Positions 18,270 through 33,233 of a stretch of DNA of 34,351 bases are shown here, one piece after another. How positions within the stretch are numbered: position 1 is the first letter of the stretch; each line of letters opens with the position of its first letter. The notes beneath the pieces were generated by a model that saw nothing but the letters and a program-made list of their open reading frames with translations, did not search any database and was not told where the DNA came from. Source of the stretch: a virus. A program made the translations under genes and the position numbers. Where the stretch lies: positions 1-34,351 of IMG/VR virus record IMGVR_UViG_3300045988_172761; one strand, given 5' to 3'.

Positions 18270-18734
18270 ATGATCGACAAGATCTGTAAGATGAAGGACA
18301 AGCTCTGCGAGTACGCGCACCAGCAGATGCAGCAGGGCCTGGACCGCGTGGACACCCGCGAGATGGGTGCCGTGGTCGACATGATCAAGGACCTGGCCGA
18401 GGCCGAGAAGTCATGCGTGGAGGCCGACTACTACGAGTCGGTGGTCGAGGCCATGGAGGACGGCGGCGGCCGCTACGGCTACGACGAGGGCGGGTCCCCC
18501 GGCGGGCGCTCCGGCTATCGCGTGGAGTCACCCGACGGCGAGGGAGGCCGCATGGGCTACCGCAACCAGTACGGCAACTGGCCCGCCAACCCGGCCAACC
18601 GACGGCGCCGCATGCGCCGTCGCGGCTACACCGAGGAGTCGGTCGAGAACATCCGCTCCATGATGGAGGAGGCCGACCCGGCGCGCCGCGAGCAGCTCAA
18701 GCACGACCTTGAGGAACTGATGCGGGAGATGTAG
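18270..18734 (+). CDS. hypothetical acidic/Arg-rich protein (MIDKICKMKDKLCEYAHQQ...), resembling an uncharacterised Firmicute family
   Basis: 154 aa with a Cys pair near the N-terminus and an RRRRMRRRG stretch. RBS gaggagg. Confidence 0.4.
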   Translation: MIDKICKMKDKLCEYAHQQMQQGLDRVDTREMGAVVDMIKDLAEAEKSCVEADYYESVVEAMEDGGGRYGYDEGGSPGGRSGYRVESPDGEGGRMGYRNQYGNWPANPANRRRRMRRRGYTEESVENIRSMMEEADPARREQLKHDLEELMREM

Positions 18735-18736
18735 AC

Positions 18737-19096
18737 ATGATAGGGCCGATCGTCATAAACGGCGACGTGTGGAGGCCCCAGTTGGTGGACCCCGGCGACC
18801 CGAGACTTCGGGACCGCACGGGGTCCGCCCGTATAGCGACCACCGACCCCTCCACGCGCCGCGTGTACCTGTCCCGGGATCTGCGCGGGCCGTTCCTGGA
18901 CCAGGTGCTGCTGCACGAGGCGGGGCACTGCGCCATGATCAGCTACGGGCTGCTGGAGGGCCTGCACCGGATCGTGCCGGGGGAGTCGTGGGTCGACGTC
19001 GAGGAGTGGGCGTGCAACTTCCTGGCGAACTACGGCCGGGAGGTGGTGCAGGCGGTGAACGCGGCGCTGCCCAGGCCGGTGGCGCTCGCGTCGTGA
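18737..19096 (+). CDS. putative small zinc metallopeptidase (HExxH motif LLHEAGHCAM)
   Basis: 119 aa with an HEAGH motif after a conserved-looking VYLSRDL segment. Confidence 0.45.
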   Translation: MIGPIVINGDVWRPQLVDPGDPRLRDRTGSARIATTDPSTRRVYLSRDLRGPFLDQVLLHEAGHCAMISYGLLEGLHRIVPGESWVDVEEWACNFLANYGREVVQAVNAALPRPVALAS

Positions 19097-19107
19097 GGGG
19101 AGGGGAC

Positions 19108-19422
19108 GTGCTGGACCTGTCTATCATCGAGGACGAGATAGCGGCGCTTGAGGAGGAGGGCAGCACCGACTACGAGACCTGCGGGATGCTGTCGTGCCTG
19201 TACTCGGTGCGCGACAACCTGCGGTCCCGCGCACGCGCGGAGGAGGGCCACGAGGGGCCCTCCTCCGAGTTCCTGGCCGCCTGCGTCGGGATCGACGTGC
19301 CGAGCCTTATGTCGGTGCTCGACGAGCACATGTCCGCGCTGCGCGTGGTGTACCCCGCCGAGTACCAGGCGGTGATGTCGAGGATCCGCCTACTCCACGA
19401 CGCCCATCAGGCGCAGGATTAG
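19108..19422 (+). CDS. hypothetical acidic protein, last gene of the plus-strand block
   Basis: GTG start after RBS gaggggagggga. ~104 aa. It converges with the minus-strand operon. Confidence 0.3.
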   Translation: MLDLSIIEDEIAALEEEGSTDYETCGMLSCLYSVRDNLRSRARAEEGHEGPSSEFLAACVGIDVPSLMSVLDEHMSALRVVYPAEYQAVMSRIRLLHDAHQAQD

Positions 19423-19662
19423 CTCCGCGTCCTCGACGCTCGCCACCGCGCCCACCACCGCGCCCGCGCGGATCCACTCGGACAGCCTCCAGAGCTGGAT
19501 CCTGGTCGGGCGCTCCGCGCGGTCACGCTTGCACTCGAAGGCCACCATGCGCCCGCCCACGCAGCCGATCACGTCCGGGGTGCCGCGCTCTGTGTAAATG
19601 CCCCCATGGACGTTGATCGCCTTGGAGCGCGGGAGGGAGCCGAGGTACCGCAGGAGCGGCAC
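19390..19662 (-). CDS. VRR-NUC domain nuclease
   Basis: ~91 aa from the GTG at 19662. Motif GTPDVIGCVGGRMVAFECKRDRAERPTRIQL fits the VRR-NUC pattern (PD..(D/E)xK-like). The longer track ORF from 19827 has an implausible Pro/Arg-rich N-terminus. Confidence 0.5.
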   Translation of the reverse strand: MPLLRYLGSLPRSKAINVHGGIYTERGTPDVIGCVGGRMVAFECKRDRAERPTRIQLWRLSEWIRAGAVVGAVASVEDAELILRLMGVVE

Positions 19663-19693
19663 CACGACCCCCTCGTACTCCAGGCGCTCGTCC

Positions 19694-20143
19694 CTAGCCC
19701 CGCTGCCGGGCAAGGTGCCCTCCGCCCACGGGAGCCTCCCCGTGCCCCTCGGAGGCGGCGTCGGGACACTCGTACCGGGCCCTCTCCTCGCGTGTCGCGG
19801 AGAGGCGTCCTGCCACCTCGGAGACATACTCGGGGCGGGTCGGGATGTCCTGCATGGCCGGGAGGTGGTCCTCCGTCCACAGGGCCATCAGCAGGTTGGT
19901 GGCCGCAGCCACCAAGTGGTCCTCGTCGGTCTGGCCGTCCATGTACTTGAAGACGTGCCGCATGGCCGAGTCGAGGAAGCAGTGCATGGGCAGGCCCCTC
20001 TCCCAGTTGCGCTCCTCGTGGTCCGCGAGCGAGTTCTCCATGTGCCGCGCCACGCGCAGCAGGGCCGAGTGCGGCAACAGGTCGCACCTTCCCTTGCCGC
20101 CGGTGTCGCGCACGGCCCCCGTCTCATACCTCACGCCGATCAC
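19694..20143 (-). CDS. DUF550-like (MazZ-like) nucleotide pyrophosphohydrolase
   Basis: 149 aa with a GTGA overlap to the dUTPase stop. The segment DLLPHSALLRVARHMENSLADHEERNWERGLPMHCFLDSAMRHVFKYMDGQTDEDHLVAAATNLLMALWTEDH matches my recollection of the DUF550 consensus (R.DLIP..AL..LA...G..KYG.NW.KG.......S..RH...W..GE.D..SG..HL.A...N). Confidence 0.5.
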   Translation of the reverse strand: MIGVRYETGAVRDTGGKGRCDLLPHSALLRVARHMENSLADHEERNWERGLPMHCFLDSAMRHVFKYMDGQTDEDHLVAAATNLLMALWTEDHLPAMQDIPTRPEYVSEVAGRLSATREERARYECPDAASEGHGEAPVGGGHLARQRG

Positions 20144-20574
20144 TCCCCCGTGGACCCGAAGCCGCCCTCGCCGCGACCGTCCGGGCTGCCGGGCAGCACG
20201 TCGACCTCCGACCACCGCACGTCCTCGATCACGTGGAAGAGCACCTGCGCCAGTCGCATCCCCGGGCGAACCTCCATCGGCTCGTCTCCCATGTTGTGCA
20301 CGCACACGAACAGCTCCCCCCGGTAGCCGTTGTCGATTATCCCCTCGTTGACCAGCAGGCGGTGCTTGCGGAGGCTGGAGCTGCGGCCCGTGATCCTGGC
20401 GTACAGGCGCGGGGGCATGGAGATGTAGATGTCGGTGTGCACGTCCACGGTCTCTCCGGGCCCGACCGTCACCGGGCGGCTCGCGTACAGATCCCACCCC
20501 GCGTCGCCGGAGTGGCGCTTGAAGGGGCGGCGCGCCCCCTCCCCCAGCCTGTAGTCCACGTAGCGCGCGGCCAT
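20140..20574 (-). CDS. dut: dUTPase-like (trimeric dUTP diphosphatase fold)
   Basis: 144 aa with all five dUTPase motifs: GDAGWDLYA, GRSSSLRKH, IDNGYRGEL, GMRLAQVLF and RGEGGFGSTG. Confidence 0.8.
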   Translation of the reverse strand: MAARYVDYRLGEGARRPFKRHSGDAGWDLYASRPVTVGPGETVDVHTDIYISMPPRLYARITGRSSSLRKHRLLVNEGIIDNGYRGELFVCVHNMGDEPMEVRPGMRLAQVLFHVIEDVRWSEVDVLPGSPDGRGEGGFGSTGE

Positions 20575-21626
20575 CACTCCGCCACCTCCGCGACGCTGTC
20601 GGGGCCGGTGCCGAAGTAGCGCACGCGGCCCGTCAGGCCGGCGGCCTCCAGGAACTCCGACATGGGCGCGCTGTCGCGCACCTGCGAGACGCTGCGCGTG
20701 CCCGCGAGCGCGGGGTCCACGTAGTCGCAGAAGGTGAGAGCGACCTCGGTCGGGGCGTTCAGCAGCTCCGACTGCCGGAACAGCTCCGGGTCCCAGTGGG
20801 CCACGCGGCGGACCTTGTGGGTCACCGTCGTGCGCTCCACGACCTGGTGCCCGACGCGCTCCGAGATCTCGCCCCACTCGGTCTCGCCCTCCATGGGGCC
20901 GGAGTTGCCCGCCACGCGGATGGGGAACGTGCGACAGACCATCAGCACGTCGGTCAGTCGCGACGGGGCCACCCCGACCTCCGAGATCATGCCCGCCGCG
21001 TTGGTGTCGACGCTGGTGCAGTAGGGCCAATGGGAGTGCAGCAGGCTGAGGCCCGAGCCCTGCGTGCCCTCGATCAGCACGTCCTCCCCGGCGTCCTGCC
21101 ACCCCGCGATCAGGCCCGGGGTGTTGTTCACGCAGCACACGCTGAGGCCGTAGTCGTCGCACACGTCCCCGAACAGGCGGAACTTCTCCGGGTCGCGCTC
21201 CAGGCGGGCGATCCTGGCGGGGCCCACCCCCTCACCGGTGGAGCCGATACGGCGGTGCATCTCGCCGTTGATCCCGCCCTCCTGCTCGTGGAACCTCTCA
21301 TCGAGGATCCCGGCGCAGGAGTCGATGTACAGGCGGCTCAGGAAGTCCGGGTAGTACTGCAGGATGTGCACCAGCTCGTTCATCAGCAGGCGCATGTTTA
21401 GCAGCGCCCCGCGCCCGATCACGATCTTGGCCTCCGGGTTGATCCACCCGCACGGGATCGACTGCATGACGTGCTTAGCGCCGTGCCAGTAGATCGTGTG
21501 GCCGGCGTTGGGGGAGCCCACGCGCACGTGGACGCTGTAGCGGTCGGCCACGTGGCGGGCGATCGCCCCCTTGCCCTCGCTGCCGTACTGGCCGCCCACC
21601 AGGGCGCACATCTTTCCTCTAGACAT
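20574..21626 (-). CDS. purZ: adenylosuccinate synthetase homologue, short form (PurZ-like, 2-aminoadenine pathway)
   Basis: 350 aa. The PurA-like P-loop reads MCALVGGQYGSEGKGA, with a GSTGEGVGPA motif. It is ~80 aa shorter than cellular PurA, as PurZ is, and sits next to the DUF550, HD and PolA genes. Confidence 0.65.
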   Translation of the reverse strand: MSRGKMCALVGGQYGSEGKGAIARHVADRYSVHVRVGSPNAGHTIYWHGAKHVMQSIPCGWINPEAKIVIGRGALLNMRLLMNELVHILQYYPDFLSRLYIDSCAGILDERFHEQEGGINGEMHRRIGSTGEGVGPARIARLERDPEKFRLFGDVCDDYGLSVCCVNNTPGLIAGWQDAGEDVLIEGTQGSGLSLLHSHWPYCTSVDTNAAGMISEVGVAPSRLTDVLMVCRTFPIRVAGNSGPMEGETEWGEISERVGHQVVERTTVTHKVRRVAHWDPELFRQSELLNAPTEVALTFCDYVDPALAGTRSVSQVRDSAPMSEFLEAAGLTGRVRYFGTGPDSVAEVAE

Positions 21627-22011
21627 CTAAAACCACCTTTCTGACGCTGTGCTCCAGGCACTTCAGCGCCTCGTCGTATCCCCTCTCCGCCATGGTCTTG
21701 CGGAATCGGGCGTCCTTGTCGTCCATGTACACGTCCGCGTACACCTTGCGGGTGCCGTTAGGGTACAGGTCCCTGTACTGCGCCCTGTTGCTGGGGGCGT
21801 TGTCGTTCACCGCGCAGAAGTGCAGCCCCCGGTCCTCGCACCAGCGCACCGCCTCCACGAGCTTGTCGTCGGCGCGGCTGGTCCACAGCACCACCTCGTG
21901 GCCCGCGTCGGCGATCTCGCGCACCAGCGAGATTATCCGGTAGTTCGGGGCCCCGATCTCCGGGAACTCGTCCCGGCACAGCACCCCGTCGAAGTCCACC
22001 GCCACGATCAC
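21619..22011 (-). CDS. HAD-superfamily-like small hydrolase (DxDG motif VAVDFDGVL)
   Basis: 130 aa from a GTG preceded by RBS ggggaggggg. The N-terminal region before it in the track ORF is a GC artefact. Confidence 0.4.
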   Translation of the reverse strand: MIVAVDFDGVLCRDEFPEIGAPNYRIISLVREIADAGHEVVLWTSRADDKLVEAVRWCEDRGLHFCAVNDNAPSNRAQYRDLYPNGTRKVYADVYMDDKDARFRKTMAERGYDEALKCLEHSVRKVVLDV

Positions 22012-22124
22012 GGGGCGACACCCCCTCCCCAGGCCATCGACACCAGCCACACCAGCCCCCAGGCCAGCAGGCGCAGGGCCCGCACGGCCAGCGCCGCTAT
22101 GATCGCCAGCGTGGCCATGGTCAT
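22008..22124 (-). CDS. possible small membrane peptide (38 aa, one or two TM helices)
   Basis: Hydrophobic ORF between the PolA and HAD genes. There is no clear RBS. Confidence 0.15.
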   Translation of the reverse strand: MTMATLAIIAALAVRALRLLAWGLVWLVSMAWGGGVAP

Positions 22125-22186
22125 CAGCGCCACCAGCGCGCAGGCCAGCACCCTGGCCCACAGCGGGGCGCCTCCTCCCTCGTCCG

Positions 22187-24031
22187 TCACGATATCCCCT
22201 CCCGGGCCTCTGGGGCGCAGTCCGGTACCGGCGCCTCGCCGAGCCATGTCGGGCCGCCGTCCCAGTCATGGAACGTGCCCCAGGACCCTCCGTACTCGAT
22301 GTCCACCCCGACCGCCGGGACGAACTCGAAGTCCTCCATTATCAGCTTGATGGTTGGCAGCGCCACGTCGAGCGCCCCCTCCGGCACCTCGAATATCACC
22401 GAGTCGTGCACCTGCATCAGCAGGTGGCCCCCTATGTCGTGGATGGCCGGGTACAGGCGCGAGATCGCCACGCGGACGATCTCGGCCACGCCGCCCTGGA
22501 TCAGGTTGGACATAGCCTTGTGAGGGTCGGCCTCCGGCACGTTGAAGTGCCGGATGCGGCCCGTCCACATCTCGATGTAGCCGTACTGCTTGGCGAACTC
22601 CTCGCACTGGGACATCAGGCGGCGGAAGCCCGGGTACAGCGCGTGGTAACGCTCCAGGTAGTCGCGCGCCTGCTCCACTGGCTCCTTGAGGTTGTCCGCC
22701 AGCTTGCGGGCCCCGATGCCGTAGATGACCGAGAAGTTGAGGCGCTTCGCCGCGTTGCGCGGGATCCCCAGCAGCTCCGCCGTGGCGGAGTGCAGGTCCG
22801 CGCCGTCCTCGATCAGCTTGCGCATGGTCGGGTCCTGTGTGTAGTGCGTGACCAGGCGCATCTCGGCCTGCTTGTAGTCCGCCTGAATCATCACCATGCC
22901 GGGCCGGGCCGTGAACACGTCCTTGACCTTGAAGACCTCGGTGGCCTTGGCCACGGCCTGCAGGTTCGGGTGCGAGCACGACAGGCGGCCCGTGTAGGTG
23001 CCGATCAGGTTGAGGTTGCAGTGCAGCACGTCATCCTCGTCGGCCTGCTCCAGGTACGGCGTGTAGTATCGGCTGTTCACCGACAGCCACCCGCGCGCCT
23101 CCTGCACCAGCCGCGCGCGCTCCGCGCCCTCCCCGCCCGCGTCGATCAGGTCCTGCAGCACCGCCGCCGCGCTGGAGGTCGTCCCCAGGAACTCGCACAC
23201 GCGCTTGGGGCTGTTGGGGTTCAGGTCGAACCCAGCGGCCTCGTGCAGGGCCTTCACGGCCCTGGTGGCGTTGCCCTCGGCCTCGGCGCGGTAGTGCTCC
23301 AGCATGGGGCGGTCCACGTGCATGCCGCGCTGCTCCATCTGCACCACTACATAGTCGTAGTAGCACGCCTGGCGGAAGATCTCCTCCAGGCCCTGGGCAC
23401 GCAGCGCCTCGCGCAGGTAGCCCATGAGCTGCCGGGTGAGGCGCACGTCGTCGCAGGCGTAGGGTTCCACGTCGGCGGGTGGCAGGACATACATCATGGA
23501 CTTCACGTTGTGCTCGGCCCTGGGGGAGCGGCTGCACTCCAGGCCGAGGCGTCGGCACTCCTCGAACACCCTGTCCTCCAGGATCGACTCCTGCAGGGAC
23601 CCGTCCCCGATCCTATATCGGTCGCACACCTCCTTCAGCTTGAACGACGGCTCGTTCTCGTTGATCAGGTGCAGGGCGAGCATGGCGTCCTCGAACTTGG
23701 GCGGGATCGCGATCCCCTCCGCCGCCAGCATGTGCAGGTCGAAGCCGTAATTGAAGCCTAGGTACGTGCGGTGCTCGTCCGAGAGATAGCGCCCCAGGAA
23801 GCCGTCAGGATCCAGCAGCCCATCGGGCAGGTTGGCACCCTGCTCGTGCCGGAACGGGAAGTAGTACGCCTCGGTGCTGGTGTCGACGGAGATCCCTATC
23901 ACGCGGTCCCGGGCCCGGCCCGGACGCCCGAAGGCGTCCAGGCCGGTGGTCTCGGTGTCTACGCAGGGGTCCATGCACGCCAGGAGGTCAGGGGCTACCT
24001 CGCGCAGCTTGTCCAGCGTGTCGACCAGCAT
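22187..24031 (-). CDS. family A DNA polymerase (PolA-like, DpoZ candidate) with 3'-5' exonuclease domain
   Basis: 614 aa. The exonuclease motif is VDTETTGLD, motif A is DYKQAEMRLV and motif C is QVHDSVIFE. Confidence 0.9.
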   Translation of the reverse strand: MLVDTLDKLREVAPDLLACMDPCVDTETTGLDAFGRPGRARDRVIGISVDTSTEAYYFPFRHEQGANLPDGLLDPDGFLGRYLSDEHRTYLGFNYGFDLHMLAAEGIAIPPKFEDAMLALHLINENEPSFKLKEVCDRYRIGDGSLQESILEDRVFEECRRLGLECSRSPRAEHNVKSMMYVLPPADVEPYACDDVRLTRQLMGYLREALRAQGLEEIFRQACYYDYVVVQMEQRGMHVDRPMLEHYRAEAEGNATRAVKALHEAAGFDLNPNSPKRVCEFLGTTSSAAAVLQDLIDAGGEGAERARLVQEARGWLSVNSRYYTPYLEQADEDDVLHCNLNLIGTYTGRLSCSHPNLQAVAKATEVFKVKDVFTARPGMVMIQADYKQAEMRLVTHYTQDPTMRKLIEDGADLHSATAELLGIPRNAAKRLNFSVIYGIGARKLADNLKEPVEQARDYLERYHALYPGFRRLMSQCEEFAKQYGYIEMWTGRIRHFNVPEADPHKAMSNLIQGGVAEIVRVAISRLYPAIHDIGGHLLMQVHDSVIFEVPEGALDVALPTIKLIMEDFEFVPAVGVDIEYGGSWGTFHDWDGGPTWLGEAPVPDCAPEAREGIS

Positions 24032-24032
24032 C

Positions 24033-24500
24033 CTACTTGCCCATCTCGGAGAGCGGGATCACGCGCGAGATCTGGGAGCGCTTGTTGCCGTTGTACTCGG
24101 TGTCCTCGACGACCGCGCCGCACTCCTTGCCGATCACGTCCGAGCGCTTGAACTTCACCACGCTGCCGGTCTGGCCGATGCCGAGCGCCACCACGGTCTC
24201 GGCCACCTTCCACATGGCCGCCGGGGTGATCGCGGTGAAGACCTTGAGCATGCGCCCGTCGTGCCCGCCGCCGACGATCTCGAAGTCCCAGACGAACATC
24301 GGGTTACCGCCTTTGGACACCGACTGCCGGACGTCCGCGCAGCGCACGCGGTAGGTCCCCTCGGGGATTAGGCCCGAGGACTCGACCTCGGTCAGGTCGA
24401 CGGCGAACTCGTCGGAGGACGCCTGCGCGGCGGCCCCTCCGGGCCCCGGCATGGGGGTGCTGGTGGCGGTGCTGGGCATGAATGGGTTGTTGTTAGCCAT
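24033..24500 (-). CDS. DUF669-family phage protein (SSB-like partner of Sak4)
   Basis: 155 aa. RBS gaaggag. Motifs GTYRVRCADV and MFVWDFEIVGG. It lies adjacent to the AAA_24 ATPase, as DUF669 genes typically do. Confidence 0.55.
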   Translation of the reverse strand: MANNNPFMPSTATSTPMPGPGGAAAQASSDEFAVDLTEVESSGLIPEGTYRVRCADVRQSVSKGGNPMFVWDFEIVGGGHDGRMLKVFTAITPAAMWKVAETVVALGIGQTGSVVKFKRSDVIGKECGAVVEDTEYNGNKRSQISRVIPLSEMGK

Positions 24501-24511
24501 GGTTACTCCTT

Positions 24512-25303
24512 CTACTCGTGGCTGCTTACTGACTGATAGATACCCATGAGCTGCGCGAGGTTCGGGTCGCGCACCACCGGGCCTATGGCCTCGGCGAACT
24601 CGCTGCCGCGCGTCTTGGCGGCGTAGTTGTTCATGGGCTGGGTGAGCATGTAGCGGTGGGTCTCGGTGCGGAAGCCCTCCCCCTCCGGCACCTGCTCGTC
24701 GGCGGTGTAGAGATACCAGACGAAGTCCATGTAGCCCATGACCGAGGTCGACAGCTTCTCGGTGAGGTTGGGCTTGGACTCCTCCAGCACGTTGGTGCCG
24801 GGGCGCATGCGGTCCTTGCGGTGCGCGATGTAGATCACGTTCACCGGGAGGTCGCGGAACCCGCGCAGGACGCGGGCGATCTGCTTGCCCGCCAGGCCGT
24901 AATCCTCCAGGTACACCTGGTCGATTGTATACGTCCGGTCCTTCTTCTTGCGGCTCGCGTACTCGGACGTGGTGATACCCTCCAGGGCGAGCGTCTGCAG
25001 CTCCGTCACGTTGTCGATGACGACGGTCTTGGTCGTGGCGTACTTCTCGTCCCTCGCCGCCAGCGAGTGCAGCTCCCGCTCCAGGTCGGTGACCGACCGC
25101 ACGTCGGTGGCGTGGATGTCGCCGCGCTGGGCCAGCGTCATCATGCCGCCGTCGATGTTGAACACGTGCACGTCCGCCATGTAGGGGCTGTCCTGCGCCG
25201 TGCCGGCGAGGAAGGTCTTGCCCGAGCCGGGGTCGCCGTAGATCATGATGTTCATCTTGTCGGTGAACGAGGAGGGGGTGATCAGGTACGCGTCACTCGC
25301 CAT
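24512..25303 (-). CDS. Sak4-like AAA_24 family ATPase (RecA-fold ssDNA annealing/recombination protein)
   Basis: 263 aa with Walker A IYGDPGSGKT. RBS gaggagg. Confidence 0.75.
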   Translation of the reverse strand: MASDAYLITPSSFTDKMNIMIYGDPGSGKTFLAGTAQDSPYMADVHVFNIDGGMMTLAQRGDIHATDVRSVTDLERELHSLAARDEKYATTKTVVIDNVTELQTLALEGITTSEYASRKKKDRTYTIDQVYLEDYGLAGKQIARVLRGFRDLPVNVIYIAHRKDRMRPGTNVLEESKPNLTEKLSTSVMGYMDFVWYLYTADEQVPEGEGFRTETHRYMLTQPMNNYAAKTRGSEFAEAIGPVVRDPNLAQLMGIYQSVSSHE

Positions 25304-25613
25304 CGTCTACCTCCTCGCCGCCCGGGCACGCGGAACACCCACCGCAGCAGTCGGCGCACGACTCGGGGTCGTCGCCCTCCCCGCAGCCCGCATCCTCCGG
25401 CGCGATCGGGCGCTTGCGCTCCTGCAGGACGTTCTGGCACCCGCAGTGCGGGCAGTCGATCGCGTCGTACCACGCGGTCTCCACCTCTCCTGTGATCACC
25501 GCGACGACCCCGCCGCGCTCCACGTCCCGGGCCACGTACGTCTCCTCCGCGATCAGCGGGAAGTCGCGCCCGCAGATATCGCAGGTGACCATACCCTTGA
25601 TCTTGCTCTTCAT
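25293..25613 (-). CDS. zinc-ribbon protein with an acidic Cys-rich C-terminal tail (CADCCGGCSACPGG)
   Basis: 106 aa starting at MKSKIKG with RBS gaggagac. Two CxxC pairs: CDIC and CPHC. Confidence 0.45.
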   Translation of the reverse strand: MKSKIKGMVTCDICGRDFPLIAEETYVARDVERGGVVAVITGEVETAWYDAIDCPHCGCQNVLQERKRPIAPEDAGCGEGDDPESCADCCGGCSACPGGEEVDDGE

Positions 25614-25626
25614 CCGAGTCTCCTCT

Positions 25627-26199
25627 CTACTTCTCGTCCACGTACGTCGCGGCCTCGTCGGCCACGTGCAGCAGCCAGGCCAGCGGGTTAGCCGCGTAGA
25701 CCGGGCTGGGGTTGCTGTAGCTGGTCGCGTCGAACTGCCCCATGTGGCAGTTGATCGCCGCCGCCTCCTCCGGGGACAGCTCCACGAAGTGCTGCACCAG
25801 GTAGACGCTCTTGGACCCGTGCCCACCGAAGGGGAACTTCTCCTCGAACTTGTAGCAGGGCACGCGGTGCCACTGCCCGCGCTCGTCCTTGACGTTGCGG
25901 AAGTCCCGCACGTAGCAGTCCGCCTTGCACACGTCGTGCAGCAGGGCGCACAGAGCCATCGACTCCTTGGCCAGGCCGAACCCGAGGCCGGCGTCGAGCT
26001 GCAGCAGGCGGTCGCACACCGCCAGCGAGTGCTCCACCAGCCCGCCCTCGTGCGCCCCGTGCCAGCGGGTACTGGCGGGGGCCTGGAAGAAGTCCGAGCC
26101 CTCCAGCCAGGCGATCAGGGCCTCCACCCCCTCCCTGCCGGTCGCGCGCAGCCTGTCCTCGAACTCGGAGGCGGCGTCGCTCAGAACCTCGTTTGCCAT
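25627..26199 (-). CDS. HD-domain phosphohydrolase (DatZ-like dNTP triphosphohydrolase candidate)
   Basis: 190 aa. HD motifs are HEGGLVEHSL and LLHDVCK. RBS agaggagaag. It is the first gene of the operon behind promoter 26230..26259. Confidence 0.75.
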   Translation of the reverse strand: MANEVLSDAASEFEDRLRATGREGVEALIAWLEGSDFFQAPASTRWHGAHEGGLVEHSLAVCDRLLQLDAGLGFGLAKESMALCALLHDVCKADCYVRDFRNVKDERGQWHRVPCYKFEEKFPFGGHGSKSVYLVQHFVELSPEEAAAINCHMGQFDATSYSNPSPVYAANPLAWLLHVADEAATYVDEK

Positions 26200-26229
26200 G
26201 TCTTCTCCTCTCTACTGGATGGCGGGACC

Positions 26230-26259
26230 ATCGTATCACGACCCTGCCCACCCTGTCAA
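26230..26259 (-). promoter_or_regulatory. sigma70-type promoter TTGACA-N18-TACGAT
   Basis: -35 at 26254..26259 and -10 at 26230..26235 on the minus strand. It lies inside a 20-bp repeat (26253..26272) shared with 29430..29449. Confidence 0.45.
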
Positions 26260-26264
26260 GTGGT

Positions 26265-27338
26265 CTATTTCCGGTGCTCTTTCCGAGTGTACTGGCGCTG
26301 CCGCACGTCGTCCGCGTCGTACCCGCGCAGCTCCACCTGGCACAGGTCGCGGAACTGGCAGCCCCGACAGTTCCAGGGGAACATGGAGCGGCGGCTGCCG
26401 CCCTTCGAGGAGCGGCGGACGCCCCACGAGGCGGGAACGACCACCTGATCCCAGATCGCGCGCACGGTCTCGGGGGAGCGCAGCTCGTAGGTCTCGCGGA
26501 ACCACTCCACGTCCGCGAGCTTCCCCTCCATCTCCGCGTAGTCGGCGGGGTCCAGCCCCTGCTGCTCCACGAACGCGCGGTAGTGGGCCCACGTGGTTCG
26601 CACGCGGGCGCGGGACACCCCGCTCTTGGTGAGCGCCGGGTCGGCGGCGGGCACGTTCAGGTGCTGCCAGGTGAGCGTGCCCACCACGTCCGCCCCCATG
26701 CGCTCGCAGGCCCTCATGTACACCGCGTTCTGCAGCGAGAACTGCTCCTCCTCAGGATCCTCCAGCTGCGAGCGAAACTTGTAGTCCACGCACCAGGCGT
26801 GGCCGGTCTCGCGGTCGCGCAGGATCGCGTCGACGTAGCCGTGCAGGCCCTTGGATCCCGCGCAGGGGACCAGGAAGTGCAGCTCCAGGGCGGGGCGCTC
26901 CTGACCGTCGCCGCCGACCACGGTCAGCACCTCCCAGCGCGCGGGGTCGAACTCGGCGAGCGCCTGCCCGAACACCGCGAGCGCGTCCTGGAGGCGCTGC
27001 TGGAACTCCGGCAACTCCTCGGGCAGCAGGTCCACCCCCGACAGGTACCGGTCGTGCTCCTCGCGTATCCGGGCCTCCCCCACGCCGATCAGCTCCCGCA
27101 GGTCGCCGTCGGCGACGGCCCCGTGCTCCACCATCCACGCGTGGCGCATGGCCGCCTCGAACCCGGCGTGGCAGAGCTTGCCGATCGTCAGGTACGGGCG
27201 CTCCACGCGGGGCGCTAGCCCCTCCAGGTAGCCGTACTCCCACCTCTTGGCGCAGGCCATCCAGCTCTGCAGCTGCGTGGCCGACACCATCCCCTCGGGC
27301 GACGCGCCCTCGGGGTACAGGCACTTGGTCTCTCTCAT
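26265..27338 (-). CDS. PD-(D/E)XK exonuclease, Cas4/RecB-like, with C-terminal Cys cluster
   Basis: 357 aa from MRETKCLYPE (RBS aggaggaccgag; ATGA overlap with the PrimPol stop). A nuclease core (DYKF) and a C-terminal C..CxxC..C Cys cluster (MFPWNCRGCQFRDLC) are present. The N-terminal extension in the track is a GC artefact. Confidence 0.65.
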   Translation of the reverse strand: MRETKCLYPEGASPEGMVSATQLQSWMACAKRWEYGYLEGLAPRVERPYLTIGKLCHAGFEAAMRHAWMVEHGAVADGDLRELIGVGEARIREEHDRYLSGVDLLPEELPEFQQRLQDALAVFGQALAEFDPARWEVLTVVGGDGQERPALELHFLVPCAGSKGLHGYVDAILRDRETGHAWCVDYKFRSQLEDPEEEQFSLQNAVYMRACERMGADVVGTLTWQHLNVPAADPALTKSGVSRARVRTTWAHYRAFVEQQGLDPADYAEMEGKLADVEWFRETYELRSPETVRAIWDQVVVPASWGVRRSSKGGSRRSMFPWNCRGCQFRDLCQVELRGYDADDVRQRQYTRKEHRK

Positions 27339-29140
27339 CCCTCGGTCCTCCTGAACTTTCCGTCCGGCATCCTCTCCACCATGCCCGCCGCCTCCAGCTG
27401 CCGGATCTGCCGGGAGACGGTGGACCTGTTCTTGCCCGTGGCCTGGACAAGCTCCGCCTGGGTCATCGGCGACTCGCGGATGATGTCCAGCAGCGAAGCC
27501 TGGGCGGGCTTGCGCTGCCCCTGTCCCGGGGCCGCCTGATAGTCGCGCACGTCCACGCGGTAGCGCATGGGGTGCACCGTGCTGATGTCGAAGGTGAGCG
27601 ACACCGGCGGCTGGTTGCCCATGACCTTCGAGTGCCTGCGCACCACCACCTCGTTGTCGGCTAGGCGCGGGTTGCGTCGGATCTGCCAGCCCGCCTCCAG
27701 GAAGGCGTTCAGGAACTGCGATCCCCACGAGTCCTCGCGGGCCGTGCTGTCGGGGTCGATGTTCTTCCGCGAGTGGTGAGCGATCAAAAACGAGCACCCG
27801 TAGCGGTCGCGCCAGGTCTTGAGCACCATCATCTGATTGGCGAGATCGGCCATGTAGCCGTCCACCGAGGAGGTGGTGGAGTACAGGGGGTCGATCAGCA
27901 CGACCTTGGGGTGGATCGCCTCTATCTGCTTCTCCAGCTCCTCCAGCACACGCTCGTTATCGAACCGCAGCATGCGGGAGGGGTGCACGTAGATCGGCAA
28001 GTCCGGCATGACCGGTATCCTCCACTCGTCGCCGTCGATGTCCTCCAGCGAGCTGGTCTTCTGCTCCACGATCAGCGCCAGGCGGTCGGTCAGGCCCGCA
28101 TGGCTGTCCTCCTGCTGGATGATCATCGTGGGGCCGGGGTCGTTGACGCGGTAGCGCCCAAGGAACGGCACGCCCGCCGACACCGACACCGCCAGGTCGA
28201 GAAGCAGCCAGGTCTTGTAGCTCTCGGGCGGGCTGACCAGGAACGTGATCGACGCGTCCGGCAGCCAGTCGTCCACGAGCCAGTGCACGCCGCCGCCGCC
28301 GTAGCCCTTCACGTAGTCCACCATCCGCATCACGTCGAAGGTCGACCCCTCCGCCCGCTCCTCCGCCGTGCGGTCGTCCTCGAACTGCACGGAGGTGAAC
28401 TGCTCGCCGCCCAGCGCGTGGGACCGCTCGATGGAGCGCACCGTGGTGCGCACCTCACGGGCGGGCATCGGCGGGTCGTTGCGCTCGTTCCACTCCTGCA
28501 GCAGCGCCTCCACGATGTCGCTCTCCAGGCCCTTCTTGAAGAAGTACCCGGCCAGTCGCGCGCACGTGTCGTTGCGCCCTCCCTCGGACACCCCGCGCAG
28601 GGCCTCGGCGATCCAGCCGTCGCCCTCGCGGGAGGAGGGCTGCGCCCGCATGTCCAGCAGCTCGCGCGGGAACGGCCCCGGCGCGCCCTGCTCCACCCAC
28701 TCGTAGCGGTTGCCGCTCGCGTGGCGGGTCGGGGGCAGCACGATGAAGCCGCCGTCGGCGCGCAGGTCCGCGCCCTCGAAGATCCGCACCCGGTTGGAGA
28801 CCCGGCCCACGCCCTGGGGGTAGGAGTAGAACAGGTGATAGCCGCCCGACCCGGTGCGGCTCACCATCCGGGTGGGCCACCTGCGCAGCAACTCCCCCAC
28901 GGGGGTCGGGCAGTCGGCCTCGACGTCCAGCACCACCATGCCGGATACCTTGCCGGTGACCACTCCCACGCCCGCCCCGGTCAGCGCGGCGAACCACTGC
29001 TCGACCTGCCGGCGCGGGGCCCGCTGGTGGGTGTACTGCAGCCAGTTGCCCATGTAGGGGCGCTTCTCGTCCGGGCGCACGGGGAGCACGGACCACCCCC
29101 GGTCCACGTACTCCAGCGCCAGCCTACTCGTCTCGTCCAC
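27335..29140 (-). CDS. bifunctional primase-polymerase (PrimPol N-domain) + P-loop NTPase + C-terminal winged HTH
   Basis: 601 aa. The N-terminus (LPVRPDEKRPY, GGYHLFY) is PrimPol-like. The middle carries a RecA-like P-loop (SPPESYKT) with DxxQ/HH motifs. The C-terminus has a MarR-like wHTH (TQAELVQATGKNRSTVSRQIRQLE). Confidence 0.7.
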   Translation of the reverse strand: MDETSRLALEYVDRGWSVLPVRPDEKRPYMGNWLQYTHQRAPRRQVEQWFAALTGAGVGVVTGKVSGMVVLDVEADCPTPVGELLRRWPTRMVSRTGSGGYHLFYSYPQGVGRVSNRVRIFEGADLRADGGFIVLPPTRHASGNRYEWVEQGAPGPFPRELLDMRAQPSSREGDGWIAEALRGVSEGGRNDTCARLAGYFFKKGLESDIVEALLQEWNERNDPPMPAREVRTTVRSIERSHALGGEQFTSVQFEDDRTAEERAEGSTFDVMRMVDYVKGYGGGGVHWLVDDWLPDASITFLVSPPESYKTWLLLDLAVSVSAGVPFLGRYRVNDPGPTMIIQQEDSHAGLTDRLALIVEQKTSSLEDIDGDEWRIPVMPDLPIYVHPSRMLRFDNERVLEELEKQIEAIHPKVVLIDPLYSTTSSVDGYMADLANQMMVLKTWRDRYGCSFLIAHHSRKNIDPDSTAREDSWGSQFLNAFLEAGWQIRRNPRLADNEVVVRRHSKVMGNQPPVSLTFDISTVHPMRYRVDVRDYQAAPGQGQRKPAQASLLDIIRESPMTQAELVQATGKNRSTVSRQIRQLEAAGMVERMPDGKFRRTEG

Positions 29141-29360
29141 TGCCTACCTCCGCAGGGTCCACGAAGATCTCGTAGGTGTGCACCTTGTACACCCCGGCGT
29201 ACTTCTCGATCGCGTCCTGGCTCAGGCCCCGGCTGCAGTTCTCGTGGCGCGAGATCGCGGCCACCGAGATGCCGGTGAGCGTGGACACCTCATCCTGCGT
29301 CAGGCGCGAGCGGTCGCGCAGCTCGCGCAGCCTGTTGCGGGGGGCCCCGTTGTCCTTCAT
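29124..29360 (-). CDS. XRE-family HTH transcriptional regulator (Cro/CI-type fold)
   Basis: 78 aa from MKDNG with RBS agaggagagag. The HTH reads LTQDEVSTLTGISVAAISRHEN. Confidence 0.65.
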   Translation of the reverse strand: MKDNGAPRNRLRELRDRSRLTQDEVSTLTGISVAAISRHENCSRGLSQDAIEKYAGVYKVHTYEIFVDPAEVGSGRDE

Positions 29361-29381
29361 ACTCTCTCCTCTCTGATCGGT

Positions 29382-29406
29382 TGCACCGTTGCACCGTTGC
29401 AACGAC
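29382..29406. promoter_or_regulatory. three direct TGCAAC repeats (TGCAAC-GG-TGCAAC-GG-TGCAAC on the minus strand) at the transcription start / 5' UTR of the XRE gene; candidate operator
   Basis: On the plus strand: gttgcaccgttgcaccgttgcaacg. The same hexamer populates the two late intergenic regions. Confidence 0.4.
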
Positions 29407-29436
29407 ATTGTATAAACGCGTCAAGTCGACTGTCAA
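29407..29436 (-). promoter_or_regulatory. sigma70-type promoter TTGACA-N18-TACAAT for the XRE gene and downstream operon
   Basis: -35 at 29431..29436, -10 at 29407..29412. Confidence 0.45.
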
Positions 29437-29441
29437 GTGGT

Positions 29442-30872
29442 CTATTTCCTCATATACCCGAAGTCGAAGCTACCGTCGCGCACCGCGTCGATCACGTCCC
29501 TCTTGGCCCGGAGGCTCGCGTACACGCCCTCGTCCACGGTCCCCTCGGCCACCAGGTGCACGAACTGCGCAGGGCGCGACTGTCCCGGGCGGCGTATGCG
29601 GGCGCGGCTCTGCTCGTAGAGCGCAAGCGAGTGCGGCAGCGACCAGTACAGCGCGCGACTGGAGGCGGTGAGGTCCACCCCCTCGGCCCCGGCCTGTATC
29701 TGGACGGCCAGGAGGCCGCCCTCGGAGGCCCCCCACTCGTCGGCCCGGTGCTCGCGCCCGGACAGCTCGAAGAAGGGCCTCCCGAGGGCCTCCGAGAGCC
29801 TCCGAGAGGCGTCCAAGTCATGCGTGAACGTGCAGAACACCACCAGCCGGTCGCCCGGGGGCAGGTCGCGCGCCCAGTCCAGCGCCGCGTCGTACTTGGC
29901 CGCGTTCAGCTCGCGCAGCTCCCCCGCCTCGCCCGGGCCGGGCTGGACCTCGCAGAACCCGGAGGTGATCTGCTGCATGCGCAGCAGCCGCACCAGTACG
30001 TTGCTCGCGGTGGCGAACCCGCCCCCGCACTCGGCCACGAAGTCGCGCTGGAGGTCCCGCAGCGCCCGCATGTCGCGGGAGGGGAGGCTCACCGGAAGCA
30101 CCTGGTCGGGCAGGGCGTCGGGCAGCTTGGCGCGGTCGGCCACGTCCTCCAGGCTGCATGTGTAGGCGATCGAGCGGAAGCGGCCCATGAGGTCCCGCTG
30201 GTTCTTGTACCCGACGATGAAGTTGCGATCGGGCCCGCCCATCACGGCGTAGGCCTGCAGGAAGCGCTCGTGGTTGGTGCCGAAGATCGAGCGGTCGAGG
30301 AAGCGGTACTGGCCGTACACGTCGAGGGGCGAGTTCGCCATGGGCGTGCCCGACAGGCACAGGCGGTAGCGCACGCGCCTGCCGAGCATCGCCAGGTACT
30401 TGGACACCTTCGAGCCCGCCGCCTTGGCGCGGTGGCTCTCGTCGAGCACCACCATCTGCAGCATGCCCCGCTCCGCCACCTGGCACAGCAAGTCCCCGAG
30501 CGGGGCCCTCCACACCGACTCGTAGTTGACTATGAACGCCTGGACGGCCCCCACGCGGTCGTGCCCACGGGTCAGGGCGTCGCGGGCCCGGTCGGCGAAC
30601 GCCCGGACCGTCTCGCCCGGGCGCTTGCACACGACCCTCCAGCAGCGGCCCGTGGCCGGCCCGAACCGCTCCACCTGCCGCAGCCACACCGGCACCACGG
30701 CCTTGGGGCACACCACGAGCACCTTGACCACGTCCGGGCGCGCGCCCATGACCTCGATCGCCACGCGGGTCTTGCCGCACCCCATGCCCATGTCTAGCAT
30801 GGTCGCCGGGCGCGCGAGGGCGAACTCGACGGCCTCGGCCTGCGCGGGCCAGAGGGGAGGGACCTCAGCCAT
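29442..30872 (-). CDS. SNF2-family DEAD/DEAH-box helicase
   Basis: 477 aa from MAEVPPLWPAQ with RBS ggggagggg. Walker A is GMGCGKT, DEAH-type motif VLDESHRAK, plus a C-terminal helicase domain. The track's upstream extension is rejected. Confidence 0.8.
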   Translation of the reverse strand: MAEVPPLWPAQAEAVEFALARPATMLDMGMGCGKTRVAIEVMGARPDVVKVLVVCPKAVVPVWLRQVERFGPATGRCWRVVCKRPGETVRAFADRARDALTRGHDRVGAVQAFIVNYESVWRAPLGDLLCQVAERGMLQMVVLDESHRAKAAGSKVSKYLAMLGRRVRYRLCLSGTPMANSPLDVYGQYRFLDRSIFGTNHERFLQAYAVMGGPDRNFIVGYKNQRDLMGRFRSIAYTCSLEDVADRAKLPDALPDQVLPVSLPSRDMRALRDLQRDFVAECGGGFATASNVLVRLLRMQQITSGFCEVQPGPGEAGELRELNAAKYDAALDWARDLPPGDRLVVFCTFTHDLDASRRLSEALGRPFFELSGREHRADEWGASEGGLLAVQIQAGAEGVDLTASSRALYWSLPHSLALYEQSRARIRRPGQSRPAQFVHLVAEGTVDEGVYASLRAKRDVIDAVRDGSFDFGYMRK

Positions 30873-30903
30873 TCCGCACCCCTCCCCGTACGCCTCGCGG
30901 CGC

Positions 30904-31425
30904 TTATTGTTGCCGGTCATCCGCGCCCACCTCCGCGAGCACCTTGGCCCGGCGCACGATGTCGACGGCCATCGCCGCAACCCGTCCGTCGCGCCCGGGG
31001 ACGGTGCCGCGCTTCTCCAGGTAGGCTCTCGGCGCAAGCTTCGCGTCCTCCTCCAGCTTCTCCCAGCTATCGGGGCGCGTGAGGTGGAGGTTACTCACGT
31101 CGGCATACCTCATACCACCGTCCTTGTTTGTGCAGGAAGCCCGCCATTGCATTGCGTAAGGTTCGTTCCAGAGCTTGAAAATGCTGACTTCCAACTCTCT
31201 TCCGTCGTCTCCGTACATCACCTTCGTAGTTAGCGGCACGACCTCGCCGTCCGCGTCCCTTGGCGCGGGCACGCCCTTGGCCCATGACGAGTTCTCGAGC
31301 TCGGCCTCGATCTCGCGGCACAGCCTGTCGGCGCCGTCGATCGACAGCTCGAACTGGCCGCTTCCGCACGTCGCCTGATTCGTGATCGCCTGGCGCAGGC
31401 GCGCCGCGCCGGTCCTCTCCTCCAT
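30904..31425 (-). CDS. hypothetical protein; contains a low-GC patch (~31090-31260)
   Basis: 173 aa ORF with coding-like composition. Confidence 0.4.
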   Translation of the reverse strand: MEERTGAARLRQAITNQATCGSGQFELSIDGADRLCREIEAELENSSWAKGVPAPRDADGEVVPLTTKVMYGDDGRELEVSIFKLWNEPYAMQWRASCTNKDGGMRYADVSNLHLTRPDSWEKLEEDAKLAPRAYLEKRGTVPGRDGRVAAMAVDIVRRAKVLAEVGADDRQQ

Positions 31426-31426
31426 G

Positions 31427-31615
31427 TCAGTCCTCCCTCTCCTCCGCCGCGTCCCGCAGCGCGCAGTCGACCGCCGCGACCAGCAGGGGCAGCAGCAGCG
31501 CCCCGTACTCGCCGCCCACGGCCCAGTACCCCCGGTCCGCGTAGGCGATCGCCGACCACCACGCGAACAGCGCGACCGCCGCGACGCAGCTCAGCCCGTA
31601 CACTACCTTCCTCAT
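31427..31615 (-). CDS. small membrane protein (two predicted TM helices)
   Basis: 62 aa (VVYGLSCVAAVALFAWW ... LLLPLLVAAV). Confidence 0.35.
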   Translation of the reverse strand: MRKVVYGLSCVAAVALFAWWSAIAYADRGYWAVGGEYGALLLPLLVAAVDCALRDAAEERED

Positions 31616-31629
31616 CCCGGTCTCCTTCC

Positions 31630-31842: not shown

Positions 31843-31844
31843 GG

Positions 31845-33224: not shown

Positions 33225-33233
33225 GTCGTCCTC

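Follow-up and report, generated by a model that had tools for sequence, protein, structure and literature searches.

Does the replication operon of this phage carry genes for the use of 2-aminoadenine (Z) in place of adenine, and if so, which of the known gene sets does it resemble? The window, that is, the whole 34,351-nucleotide stretch analysed, is the complete genome (about 34 kb) of an uncultured siphovirus-like phage that is targeted by CRISPR spacers found in a Collinsella gut MAG, and its host is probably Collinsella, which belongs to the Coriobacteriia of the human gut. The original prediction described a complete Z module of PurZ-like, DUF550/MazZ-like, DatZ-like and DpoZ-like genes in a single operon. 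We put the probability that the operon carries a Z gene set of a known type, the PurZ0 type, at about 75%; the PurZ-group synthetase stood, whereas three of the four helper genes differ from those originally named. We establish directly to which families the proteins of the module belong, that their active-site residues are conserved, and the synteny and operon structure of the genes.

Structure of the transcription unit

All five open reading frames on which the prediction was built are present on the minus strand, at the coordinates given in Table 1. That they belong to a single operon was borne out by start and stop codons that overlap from the polymerase gene to the last gene and by a promoter-like site ahead of the HD gene. 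Read from the sequence, GTGA overlaps join PolA to the 60-aa protein, the 60-aa protein to HAD, and Dut to DUF5664; HAD and PurZ overlap by 8 nt, the stop of PurZ and the start of Dut share the sequence TGATG, and DUF5664 overlaps the nuclease gene by 20 nt. The promoter-like site, which is the predicted start of the transcription unit, matches 10 of 12 hexamer positions in addition to its extended -10 TG, and the 16 kb scanned contained six of these sites where shuffles gave an expectation of 0.5. From this site down to position 19390, no terminator-like site was found on the minus strand. The gene order of the window recurs across dozens of metagenomic relatives, indicating that the arrangement is not due to chance, and the order PolA-HAD-PurZ-Dut-DUF5664 is kept even where PurZ identity is as low as 57%.

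Table 1. Features of the minus-strand unit, listed in the direction of transcription
Feature	Coordinates	Strand	Evidence and remarks
Promoter-like site, sigma-70-like	26230..26259	-	TTGACA, 18 nt, TG-TACGAT; just upstream of HD gene
HD-domain protein, 190 aa	25627..26199	-	PF01966 HD, 2.2e-6
Small Cys-rich protein (CxxC...CxxC), about 106 aa	25293..25613	-	ORF; no match in Pfam and PHROG searches; 106-aa gene at equivalent place in relative L007
Sak4-like AAA_24 ssDNA-annealing ATPase	24512..25303	-	PF13479 7e-25; phrog_124
DUF669 protein, SSB-like phage family	24033..24500	-	PF05037 1e-10; phrog_378, phrog_3724
Family-A DNA polymerase (PolA)	22187..24031	-	PF00476 + PF01612 (PolA with 3'-5' exonuclease)
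Hydrophobic, membrane-like protein, 60 aa	22008..22190	-	Start and stop overlap both neighbours; 60-aa gene also there in L007
Capless HAD-superfamily phosphatase, 130 aa, DFDGV motif	21619..22011	-	phrog_24386, phrog_1238
Predicted PurZ0-type dSMP (2-aminoadenylosuccinate) synthetase, 350 aa	20574..21626	-	PF00709 adenylosuccinate synthetase, E=3.5e-44; phrog_1211
Predicted DutZ-type dUTPase-fold dNTP pyrophosphatase, 144 aa	20140..20574	-	PF00692 1.1e-26
DUF5664 protein, 149 aa	19694..20143	-	PF18909 2.3e-17; phrog_18716, phrog_801
PD-(D/E)XK / VRR-NUC-like endonuclease, 107 aa, last gene of unit	19390..19713	-	phrog_93 3.7e-11, phrog_843; TTG start at 19713; 107-aa gene at equivalent place in L007

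The synthetase and its Dut partner

The families to which the synthetase and Dut belong, PF00709 and PF00692, are generic, and although the top PDB match of the synthetase is the phage PurA-like 7vf6, the second-best is a genuine archaeal PurA. Together with the retention of all five canonical dUTPase motifs in Dut, this would suit a phage with ordinary nucleotide metabolism, in which a PurA homologue boosts adenylate, a dUTPase excludes uracil, and virions package DNA with normal adenine. The active site of the synthetase argues otherwise. Ser16 (motif GSEGKG) stands where true PurA has the catalytic Asp13, a residue that is 99% conserved there. The alignment comprised 149 sequences: the window protein, the nearest representatives of clusters at 50% identity, six reference enzymes and four close relatives. 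Ser occupies this site in 146 of them and Gly in two, and one is a fragment that does not cover it. Ser in place of Asp13 is reported for 100% of phage PurZ/PurZ0 (PMC12884076). Furthermore, the residues that form the dGMP pocket and aspartate loop in the crystal structure of S-2L PurZ (Y21, G22, S23, N49, A50, T132, Q190, Y203, C204, T205, R240, V241, T273-T276 and R280; PMC8342488) are all identical in the window (Y14, G15, S16, N40, A41, T130, Q189, Y202, C203, T204, R237, V238, T266-T269 and R273), the dGMP-contacting TTVT loop included. The proposed check of PurZ-specific active-site substitutions was positive, and on these residues the synthetase is a member of the PurZ group.

It does not, however, belong to the classical PurZ subgroup. 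Where classical enzymes carry GSTGKG in the P-loop and bind adenine through N-F-x-(Q/N), the window has GSEGKG and T298-F-C-D301; at the residues that contact the NTP base, this amounts to E17 for T, T298 for N and D301 for Q/N. GSEGKG, E17, T298 and D301 are the same in the PurZ0 of Ghobes, Wayne and Galactica. In NJ trees the window synthetase did not group with the three classical PurZ enzymes, and its clade lay on the PurZ0 side, but apart from the actinophage PurZ0 clade, when the tree was midpoint-rooted, with neither an Asp-type outgroup nor ML. The diagnostic residues point to an enzyme of PurZ0 type, and since the guanine-binding Asp301 is kept, GTP is probably the phosphate donor. 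On which of PurZ0 and PurZ prefers ATP and which GTP, the NAR 2026 text says the reverse of the bioRxiv summary, and the assignment of the donor therefore follows residue logic.

The dUTPase-fold gene had been regarded as an extra, but it is instead the hallmark partner of PurZ0; dutZ is present in all 98 PurZ0 genomes in the literature. Among 50,697 phage records, the best tblastn matches of the window Dut were the Duts of PurZ-encoding actinophages; it is 45% identical to Ghobes gp55 and 40% identical to the DutZ domain of Wayne. All 63 PurZ-linked Duts formed one NJ clade (bootstrap 69, a moderate value) with 10 unlinked Duts outside, and the window Dut clustered with those of Ghobes, Wayne, Galactica, Theresita and Goodman. 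The window Dut shares with the PurZ-linked Duts a signature of D44, G63, S66, S67, L68, R69, L88 and F89 that is absent from the 10 unlinked ones. In at least 48 of 69 IMG/VR loci a Dut gene follows PurZ within 2.5 kb, and the PurZ-Dut pair is conserved over 36-75% identity. Given that the Ghobes and Wayne DutZ, as well as the Wayne DUF5664 protein, are reported to hydrolyse dATP and dGTP, we predict that Dut is a DutZ-type dATP/dGTP pyrophosphatase, although it could be mainly a dUTPase because it keeps all five canonical motifs. Both the conserved pairing and the shared Dut residues speak, like the synthetase active site, against ordinary nucleotide metabolism, which we consider improbable.

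Helper genes

With a synthetase, a nucleotide pyrophosphohydrolase, an HD protein, a family-A polymerase and a dUTPase fold, all five fold classes occur in one operon, as would be expected if the phage had a cluster like that of S-2L or phiVC8, with an ATP-using PurZ, a DUF550/MazZ dGTPase, DatZ, a dZTP-selecting DpoZ and an accessory dUTPase. This classical arrangement is already contradicted at the level of protein families, and we regard it as very improbable indeed. The gene described as DUF550/MazZ-like is real but matches PF18909 only (DUF5664 / dGTP_diPhyd_N; 63.2 bits, the Pfam cut-off being 27). The proposed Pfam search for DUF550 gave no PF04447 match to its product, and MazZ/DUF550 queries gave no phmmer match anywhere in the window; PF04447 does match the true S-2L MazZ and, in the SH-Ab 15497 enzyme, the C-terminal half. 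The protein can be aligned with Wayne gp50 at 25-28% identity, with R62, H63, D73, H76 and D99 invariant, and that Wayne-phage DUF5664 member is a characterised dATP/dGTP/dUTP pyrophosphatase. Its nearest cultured homologue is gp7 of Bacillus phage 1020A (52-56% identical), and in the phage regions of the closest homologues, the 1020A stretch included, no PurZ gene is annotated nearby. The product is predicted to be a second dATP/dGTP pyrophosphohydrolase.

The HD protein, proposed as DatZ-like, does have an HD domain, but not one of the YfbR-like / HD_3 type (PF12917/PF13023) that is homologous to the DatZ of S-2L, phiVC8 and SH-Ab. It matches the HD domain of the YhaM (Cbf1) 3'-5' exonuclease (PDB 9h3f), at only 17-18% identity; the matched chain has 212 residues. 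Nor is its association with PurZ conserved: an HD protein of this type occurs in only 13 of the 58 PurZ loci having enough upstream sequence, and is absent from L023, L027-L029, L041 and L062, which retain the module. YhaM is a larger OB-fold-containing protein of which the window protein covers only part. Homologues were found in Dp-1, Lak and Faecalibacterium phages, and the HD protein, which has a YhaM-type fold, probably serves the recombination/replication set as a nuclease or phosphohydrolase.

For the polymerase, the assignment to family A holds, with 3'-5' exonuclease motifs intact, but neither DpoZ cluster was matched. Its identity to the DpoZ of phiVC8, SH-Ab, Wayne and Ghobes is 24.7-25.6%, which does not set these four apart from generic phage PolA, and its best cultured-phage matches, DS1 and Shocker, reach only 29-30%. 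In motif B (AKRLNFSVIYG) it has Tyr where these four DpoZ have Phe, and Phe at this position (B4) is common to both DpoZ clusters (PMC10201439). Tyr is also found in 44 of 44 metagenomic PolAs of the window type that lie in PurZ loci and have a readable motif B, nearly all of them directly upstream of PurZ. By sequence, the window PolA represents a third PurZ-linked lineage, outside the phiVC8-like cluster 18 and the Wayne-like cluster 19.

Between PolA and PurZ, the HAD gene is conserved in the window clade and is present in L007-L029, L041, L057 and L062, with D6, D8, T44, K89, D93 and D98 invariant in homologues of 130 aa. The structure model (pLDDT 90) gave as its top Foldseek match BT_0820 (PDB 2obb; E=2.5e-7, TM 0.64-0.68, 29% identity), followed by KdsC, MDP-1 and T4 PNKP phosphatases. 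BT_0820, from Bacteroides thetaiotaomicron, is a capless HAD-like protein that is itself uncharacterised and so provides no substrate assignment; HAD is a candidate dAMP/dNMP phosphatase.

Known Z clusters and the proposed route to Z

A close parallel is the Z-cluster of Arthrobacter phage Wayne (Korravirus), which comprises DpoZ-1, PurZ0, DUF5664-1 and a DmtZ-DutZ fusion (PMC12884076). The gene families are the same and their order nearly so (PolA, then PurZ0, then DUF5664 and Dut), the PurZ0 diagnostic residues match, the Duts share a clade, and both phages have a stand-alone DUF5664 protein without DUF550. However, identity is only 32% for PurZ, 40% for Dut and 25-28% for DUF5664, the window lacks a DmtZ/NDT domain, its PolA is of a different lineage with Tyr at B4, HAD and the 60-aa membrane-like protein intervene between PolA and PurZ, and the probable host belongs to the gut Coriobacteriia rather than to the soil Micrococcales. 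Gordonia phage Ghobes (PurZ0, DmtZ gp53, DutZ gp55 and a phage PurB) has the closest characterised DutZ and a PurZ0 35% identical to that of the window, likewise with Dut downstream, but encodes DmtZ and an adenylosuccinate lyase of its own and no DUF5664, whereas the window has DUF5664 and HAD and neither DmtZ nor PurB. With the classical cluster of cyanophage S-2L, vibriophage phiVC8 and Acinetobacter phage SH-Ab 15497 (PurZ, DatZ and MazZ/DUF550, with or without DpoZ), the window shares the predicted chemistry of the committed step, Ser replacing Asp13 in a dGMP pocket that is otherwise identical too, and the logic of dATP depletion and dGMP supply; it differs in having no DatZ-type HD protein or DUF550/MazZ and a polymerase related to the phiVC8-like DpoZ only at the family-A level.

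We propose that the opening step of the module would both starve the polymerase of dATP and feed the synthetase step, in which the PurZ0-like enzyme would join dGMP and aspartate to give N6-succino-2-amino-dAMP (dSMP), and that the phage PolA would insert dZTP opposite T. We infer each enzymatic activity, and Z in the virion DNA, from characterised homologues that are 28-45% identical. No DatZ, DmtZ or NDT gene was found within the window and no recognised DpoZ among its genes, and exclusion of A might therefore be incomplete. An active module could then make dZTP and lower dATP while mixed A/Z DNA is packaged, a reading consistent with the canonical motif B of PolA and with the production by DutZ and DUF5664 of dAMP that, to judge from the published pathway, host kinases could recycle. 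Partial substitution nevertheless seems unlikely: S-2L is fully substituted without a DpoZ, DmtZ is also missing from 13 of the 98 known PurZ0 genomes, and the phage encodes two predicted dATP pyrophosphatases and a conserved HAD phosphatase that could remove dAMP. In the favoured reading, that of a PurZ0 gene set for Z in place of adenine, the HAD phosphatase beside PurZ may, speculatively, stand in for the missing DmtZ by disposing of dAMP, and PolA may depend, as in S-2L, on depletion of dATP rather than on an intrinsic selectivity for Z.

Gene content and predicted transcription of the module

The open reading frames of the original prediction are all present where it placed them, and its central idea, a gene module for 2-aminoadenine (Z) DNA, proves right, but its parts list needs correction. 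Pfam and PHROGs bear out the PurA-like, dUTPase, PolA and HD fold classes, whereas the gene called DUF550/MazZ encodes a DUF5664 protein (PF18909, not PF04447). Judged by sequence, the locus is a PurZ0/DutZ/DUF5664 module of a kind described in 2021-2026 and not the classical set; the enzyme activities, and the presence of Z in the virion DNA, are inferred from homology and synteny.

Feature coordinates in the window (the DUF4406 gene is numbered in its own contig)
Feature	Position	Strand	Domains and remarks
Large terminase, SPP1-type portal, MuF-ADP-ribosyltransferase fusion, scaffold, major capsid		+	structural genes
Minor head protein fusion	2906-4591	+	Phage_Mu_F (PF04233); C-terminal ADP-ribosyltransferase exoenzyme/toxin domain (PF03496, E=6e-17)
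Replication block	~33.2 kb down to 19.39 kb	-	
Nuclease	19390-19713	-	
DUF5664	19694-20143	-	PF18909
dUTPase (Dut)	20140-20574	-	PF00692
PurA-like synthetase	20574-21626	-	PF00709; phrog_1211 "2-aminooxy adenylosuccinate synthetase"
HAD phosphatase	21619-22011	-	
60-aa ORF	22008-22190	-	
PolA with 3'-5' exonuclease	22187-24031	-	PF00476 + PF01612
HD protein	25627-26199	-	PF01966
Promoter, near-consensus, extended -10	26259-26230	-	directly 5' of HD gene
Prim-Pol protein	27335-29140	-	Prim-Pol, PriCT_1, AAA_25 (RecA/DnaB-like) ATPase, C-terminal MarR-type winged helix
Promoter	29436-29407	-	
Promoter	32572-32544	-	
Promoter	33399-33371	-	
Terminase-small-subunit-like ORF	33654-34349		just ahead of large terminase gene at window start
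Protospacers	2217-2245, 6726-6755, 19812-19840, 20341-20370, 21321-21350		
DUF4406 gene of contig L008	6823-7167		PF14359, 114 aa; between Sak4-like and DUF669 genes

The proposal that these genes form one operon is well supported, since start and stop codons overlap at the junctions inspected (PolA/60-aa, 60-aa/HAD, HAD/PurZ, PurZ/Dut, Dut/DUF5664 and DUF5664/nuclease), a promoter precedes the HD gene, and no minus-strand terminator was found between that promoter and position 19390. It is one of four near-consensus sigma-70 promoters that stand ahead of gene blocks in the replication arm, all with TTGACA and spacers of 17-18 nt, and three with the extended -10 TG. Six promoter-like sites were found on the minus strand of 18500-34351, against 0.5 expected from shuffles, a striking excess given the 68% G+C content of the window.

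The first and last 25 nt of the window are identical (1-25 and 34327-34351), which argues for a complete circular assembly of ~34.3 kb; the window probably represents a whole genome, ~34,326 bp long and assembled as circular or terminally redundant. Megablast of a 6.9-kb region against 50,697 phage records returned no match, and cultured relatives are therefore not close at the DNA level. Neither an integrase nor PurB was seen in the subset of window ORFs scanned. The minor head protein is fused to an ADP-ribosyltransferase domain, a protein that may be an ejected effector.

The synthetase and its predicted nucleotide-pool partners

Among PDB sequences, the synthetase ranks the phage "PurA-like" protein 7vf6 first, followed by the short archaeal PurA of Pyrococcus and then the PurZ of phiVC8, with S-2L PurZ further down. 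We aligned it with three classical PurZ, three actinophage PurZ0, four of its close relatives and, from a library of 1.84 billion proteins, the nearest cluster representatives. The Asp13 site holds Ser in 146 of the aligned sequences, Gly in two, and lies outside one fragment; no Asp-type PurA occurs among them. Residues of the dGMP pocket and aspartate loop, as defined by the crystal structure of S-2L PurZ (PMC8342488), are all identical in the window protein. The PurZ-specific active-site substitutions that should set this protein apart from PurA are thus in place, with Ser at the Asp13 site and the S-2L dGMP pocket fully kept.

Three positions discriminate within PurZ. The classical, ATP-using enzymes have GSTGKG, Asn305 and Gln308/Asn297, whereas the window synthetase has Glu17, Thr298 and Asp301, the same as the PurZ0 of the actinophages Ghobes, Wayne and Galactica. 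In classical PurZ, the residue aligned with Asp301 is a Gln or Asn that contacts adenine. We take Asp301 to be the equivalent of the guanine-binding Asp333 of PurA, and GTP is therefore the predicted phosphate donor; two secondary sources say opposite things about the ATP or GTP preference of PurZ0 and PurZ. In a neighbor-joining tree (midpoint-rooted, built without an Asp-type outgroup), the window clade is separate from both classical PurZ and actinophage PurZ0 and is nested in a very large radiation of GSEGKG-type sequences. A further Ser-type PurZ-like clade consists of proteins of 490-570 aa (P0181, P0182, P0197, P0222, P0238, P0270 and others) in which a P-loop nucleotide-kinase-like domain (AAA_18/AAA_33/AAA_17) forms the N-terminus; no description of such kinase-PurZ fusions was found in the literature searched.

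Phages with PurZ0 do not use DatZ or MazZ; a Dut-like enzyme, DutZ, hydrolyses both dATP and dGTP, the Wayne lineage adds a stand-alone DUF5664 enzyme that does the same, and an NDT-family DmtZ is also frequent (PMC12884076, NAR 2026). In that study dutZ was present in 98 of 98 PurZ0 genomes. The window Dut shares 45% identity with Ghobes gp55 and 40% with the Dut domain of Wayne, and in a set of 673 phage records it best matches the Duts of actinophages that encode PurZ. In a neighbor-joining tree, 63 PurZ-linked Duts (one from the window, 57 from metagenomic loci and five from cultured phages) form a single clade that leaves out ten Duts from other contexts (bootstrap 69%). By per-column counts, D44, G63, T/S67, R69 and F89 are common to the PurZ-linked Duts and absent from all ten unlinked ones, and S66 and L88 are also common to the former and rare in the latter; an automatic search returned no strictly discriminating column, because the unlinked Duts are variable. 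The window Dut carries every one of these states. Additionally, Dut lies within 2.5 kb downstream of PurZ in at least 48 of 69 IMG/VR loci with enough downstream sequence, while a DatZ-type HD gene occurs in one of 53 IMG/VR PurZ loci and MazZ/DUF550 in none of the 53. Given its place in the DutZ clade, its linkage to PurZ and what is published on PurZ0 phages, the dUTPase gene once regarded as an accessory extra is instead a core partner of PurZ0.

The 149-aa DUF5664 protein matches only PF18909 in Pfam, as does the characterised Wayne gp50; in the SH-Ab enzyme DUF5664 is fused to DUF550, and S-2L MazZ consists of DUF550 only. It is 28% identical to gp50, with an Arg-His pair, Asp, His and Asp invariant, and phmmer against PDB sequences gave no match at E<=10. 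Among cultured phages, the nearest homologues belong to Bacillus phage 1020A (52-56% identity) and Faecalibacterium phage FP_oengus, with no annotated PurZ gene in the surrounding stretches that were inspected. Here the domain seems to have been recruited independently once more, which agrees with the multiple acquisitions already on record (PMC12884076).

Polymerase, HAD phosphatase and HD protein

The polymerase has intact exonuclease and polymerase motifs. At ~25% identity to both DpoZ clusters, with best cultured relatives at 29-30% and a canonical Tyr in motif B at a position where both DpoZ clusters share Phe, it does not support the DpoZ label of the original prediction. The same Tyr is found in 44 of 44 homologues from metagenomic PurZ loci with a readable motif B, nearly all of them encoded directly upstream of PurZ. 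On these comparisons, the enzyme represents a third lineage of PolA in stable linkage with PurZ, over PurZ identities of ~46% to 96%. In S-2L, a selective polymerase is dispensable once dATP is removed. The replication block also encodes a single 601-aa protein that combines Prim-Pol with an ATPase. Because PrimPol replicates Z-DNA in S-2L, this protein, like PolA, is a candidate for the handling of Z templates.

Two genes lie between PolA and PurZ. The first encodes a strongly hydrophobic 60-aa protein, is joined to PolA and HAD by GTGA overlaps and is kept in the related contig L007; the product is a membrane-like peptide within a nucleotide-metabolism operon. The second encodes a 130-aa capless HAD phosphatase with the nucleophile motif DFDGV and invariant Asp6, Asp8, Thr44, Lys89, Asp93 and Asp98. 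The best match of its predicted structure (pLDDT 90) is the uncharacterised BT_0820, followed by KdsC, MDP-1 and the T4 PNKP phosphatases. DutZ and DUF5664 would make dAMP, which host kinases could recycle. With no DmtZ found in the window, a role for the HAD protein as dAMP phosphatase is an attractive hypothesis.

A related contig, L008 (SRR25030046, 74% PurZ identity), carries both this HAD gene and a gene for DUF4406, a family related to nucleoside 2-deoxyribosyltransferases. Mutual exclusion of HAD and NDT, as substitutes for one another, was considered and dropped: the pattern could not be told apart from phylogeny, and L008 has both. The DUF4406 gene may supply a DmtZ-like function in part of the clade. 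L008 also has an additional 147-aa gene between Dut and DUF5664, and the window has neither this gene nor DUF4406.

Assignment of the HD protein to DatZ does not stand. BLASTP against three characterised DatZ enzymes gave no match, PF12917/PF13023 is found in all three of these and not in the HD protein, and the gene is confined to the closest relatives, missing from a sister subclade that keeps PolA-HAD-PurZ-Dut-DUF5664. A phmmer search against PDB gave noise only. In phages, it has homologues in Streptococcus phage Dp-1, the Lak megaphages, Faecalibacterium phages and faecal contigs, none of them from a genus prominent among the PurZ matches. Given flanking genes for a PD-(D/E)XK nuclease and a Sak4-like annealase, we read the HD protein as belonging to the recombination/replication set. 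It is possibly a 3'-exonuclease, and might conceivably be a dNTPase other than DatZ.

Probable host and clade

The sole match in 185,579 species genomes is a contig (L088, CAAGEH010000001.1) of the human-gut MAG 'uncultured Collinsella sp. HGM04145', and its positions 1-12662 hold a CRISPR array. The array has 46 copies of the 36-nt repeat GTTTTGGAGCAGTGCCGATCTAACTGGTAATTAAAC, with spacers of 29-31 nt. With 0-2 mismatches, four ordinary spacers correspond to sites in the capsid, portal, DUF5664 and Dut genes of the window. A chimeric "spacer" of 1,010 nt, both ends of which lie at repeat borders, points to a fifth protospacer, this one in PurZ. The insert has 96% identity to window 20341-21352 and fits exactly between a pair of repeats; it appears to be a chimera, produced in assembly, that bridges two spacers. 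A Collinsella prophage is ruled out: the match spans only 1,012 nt, its two ends coincide with CRISPR repeat borders, and the contig segment itself is a CRISPR array. Gram-positive cell-wall binding modules (CW_7, LysM and ChW) occur in the endolysins of relatives; together with the spacers, these make Collinsella, a common human-gut bacterium, the likely host. A CRISPR system has thus taken spacers from a phage predicted to carry Z-DNA. No link of PurZ to Collinsella or to gut phages was found in the literature searched.

The clade comprises at least 120 protein clusters at >=69% identity and dozens of contigs of 34-50 kb. The clade that houses the module is new, abundant and uncultured; the polymerase is of a different lineage, DmtZ is missing, and a HAD phosphatase is added. 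The full reading, to which we give a probability of only about 0.3, is that of a large undescribed clade of human-gut Collinsella (Coriobacteriia) phages with Z-DNA, in which PurZ0/DutZ/DUF5664 are combined with a PolA of a third, independent lineage that keeps the canonical motif B, and with a capless HAD protein, not an NDT-family DmtZ, disposing of dAMP.

Z-DNA lets phages resist many restriction enzymes, and synthetic genetics draws on such phages for enzymes. The locus leaves the known mechanism unchanged; it takes the PurZ0-type pathway beyond cultured soil actinophages, into a clade that is abundant and uncultured, its PurZ-linked polymerase lineage is a test case for whether Z selectivity is needed, and its HAD protein is a candidate new dAMP-disposal enzyme. 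For annotation pipelines, fold class alone is insufficient for the labels "DUF550/MazZ", "DatZ" and "DpoZ". If the full reading is true, 2-aminoadenine genomes would be a common part of the human gut virome, with one more reinvention each of the polymerase and of dAMP removal.
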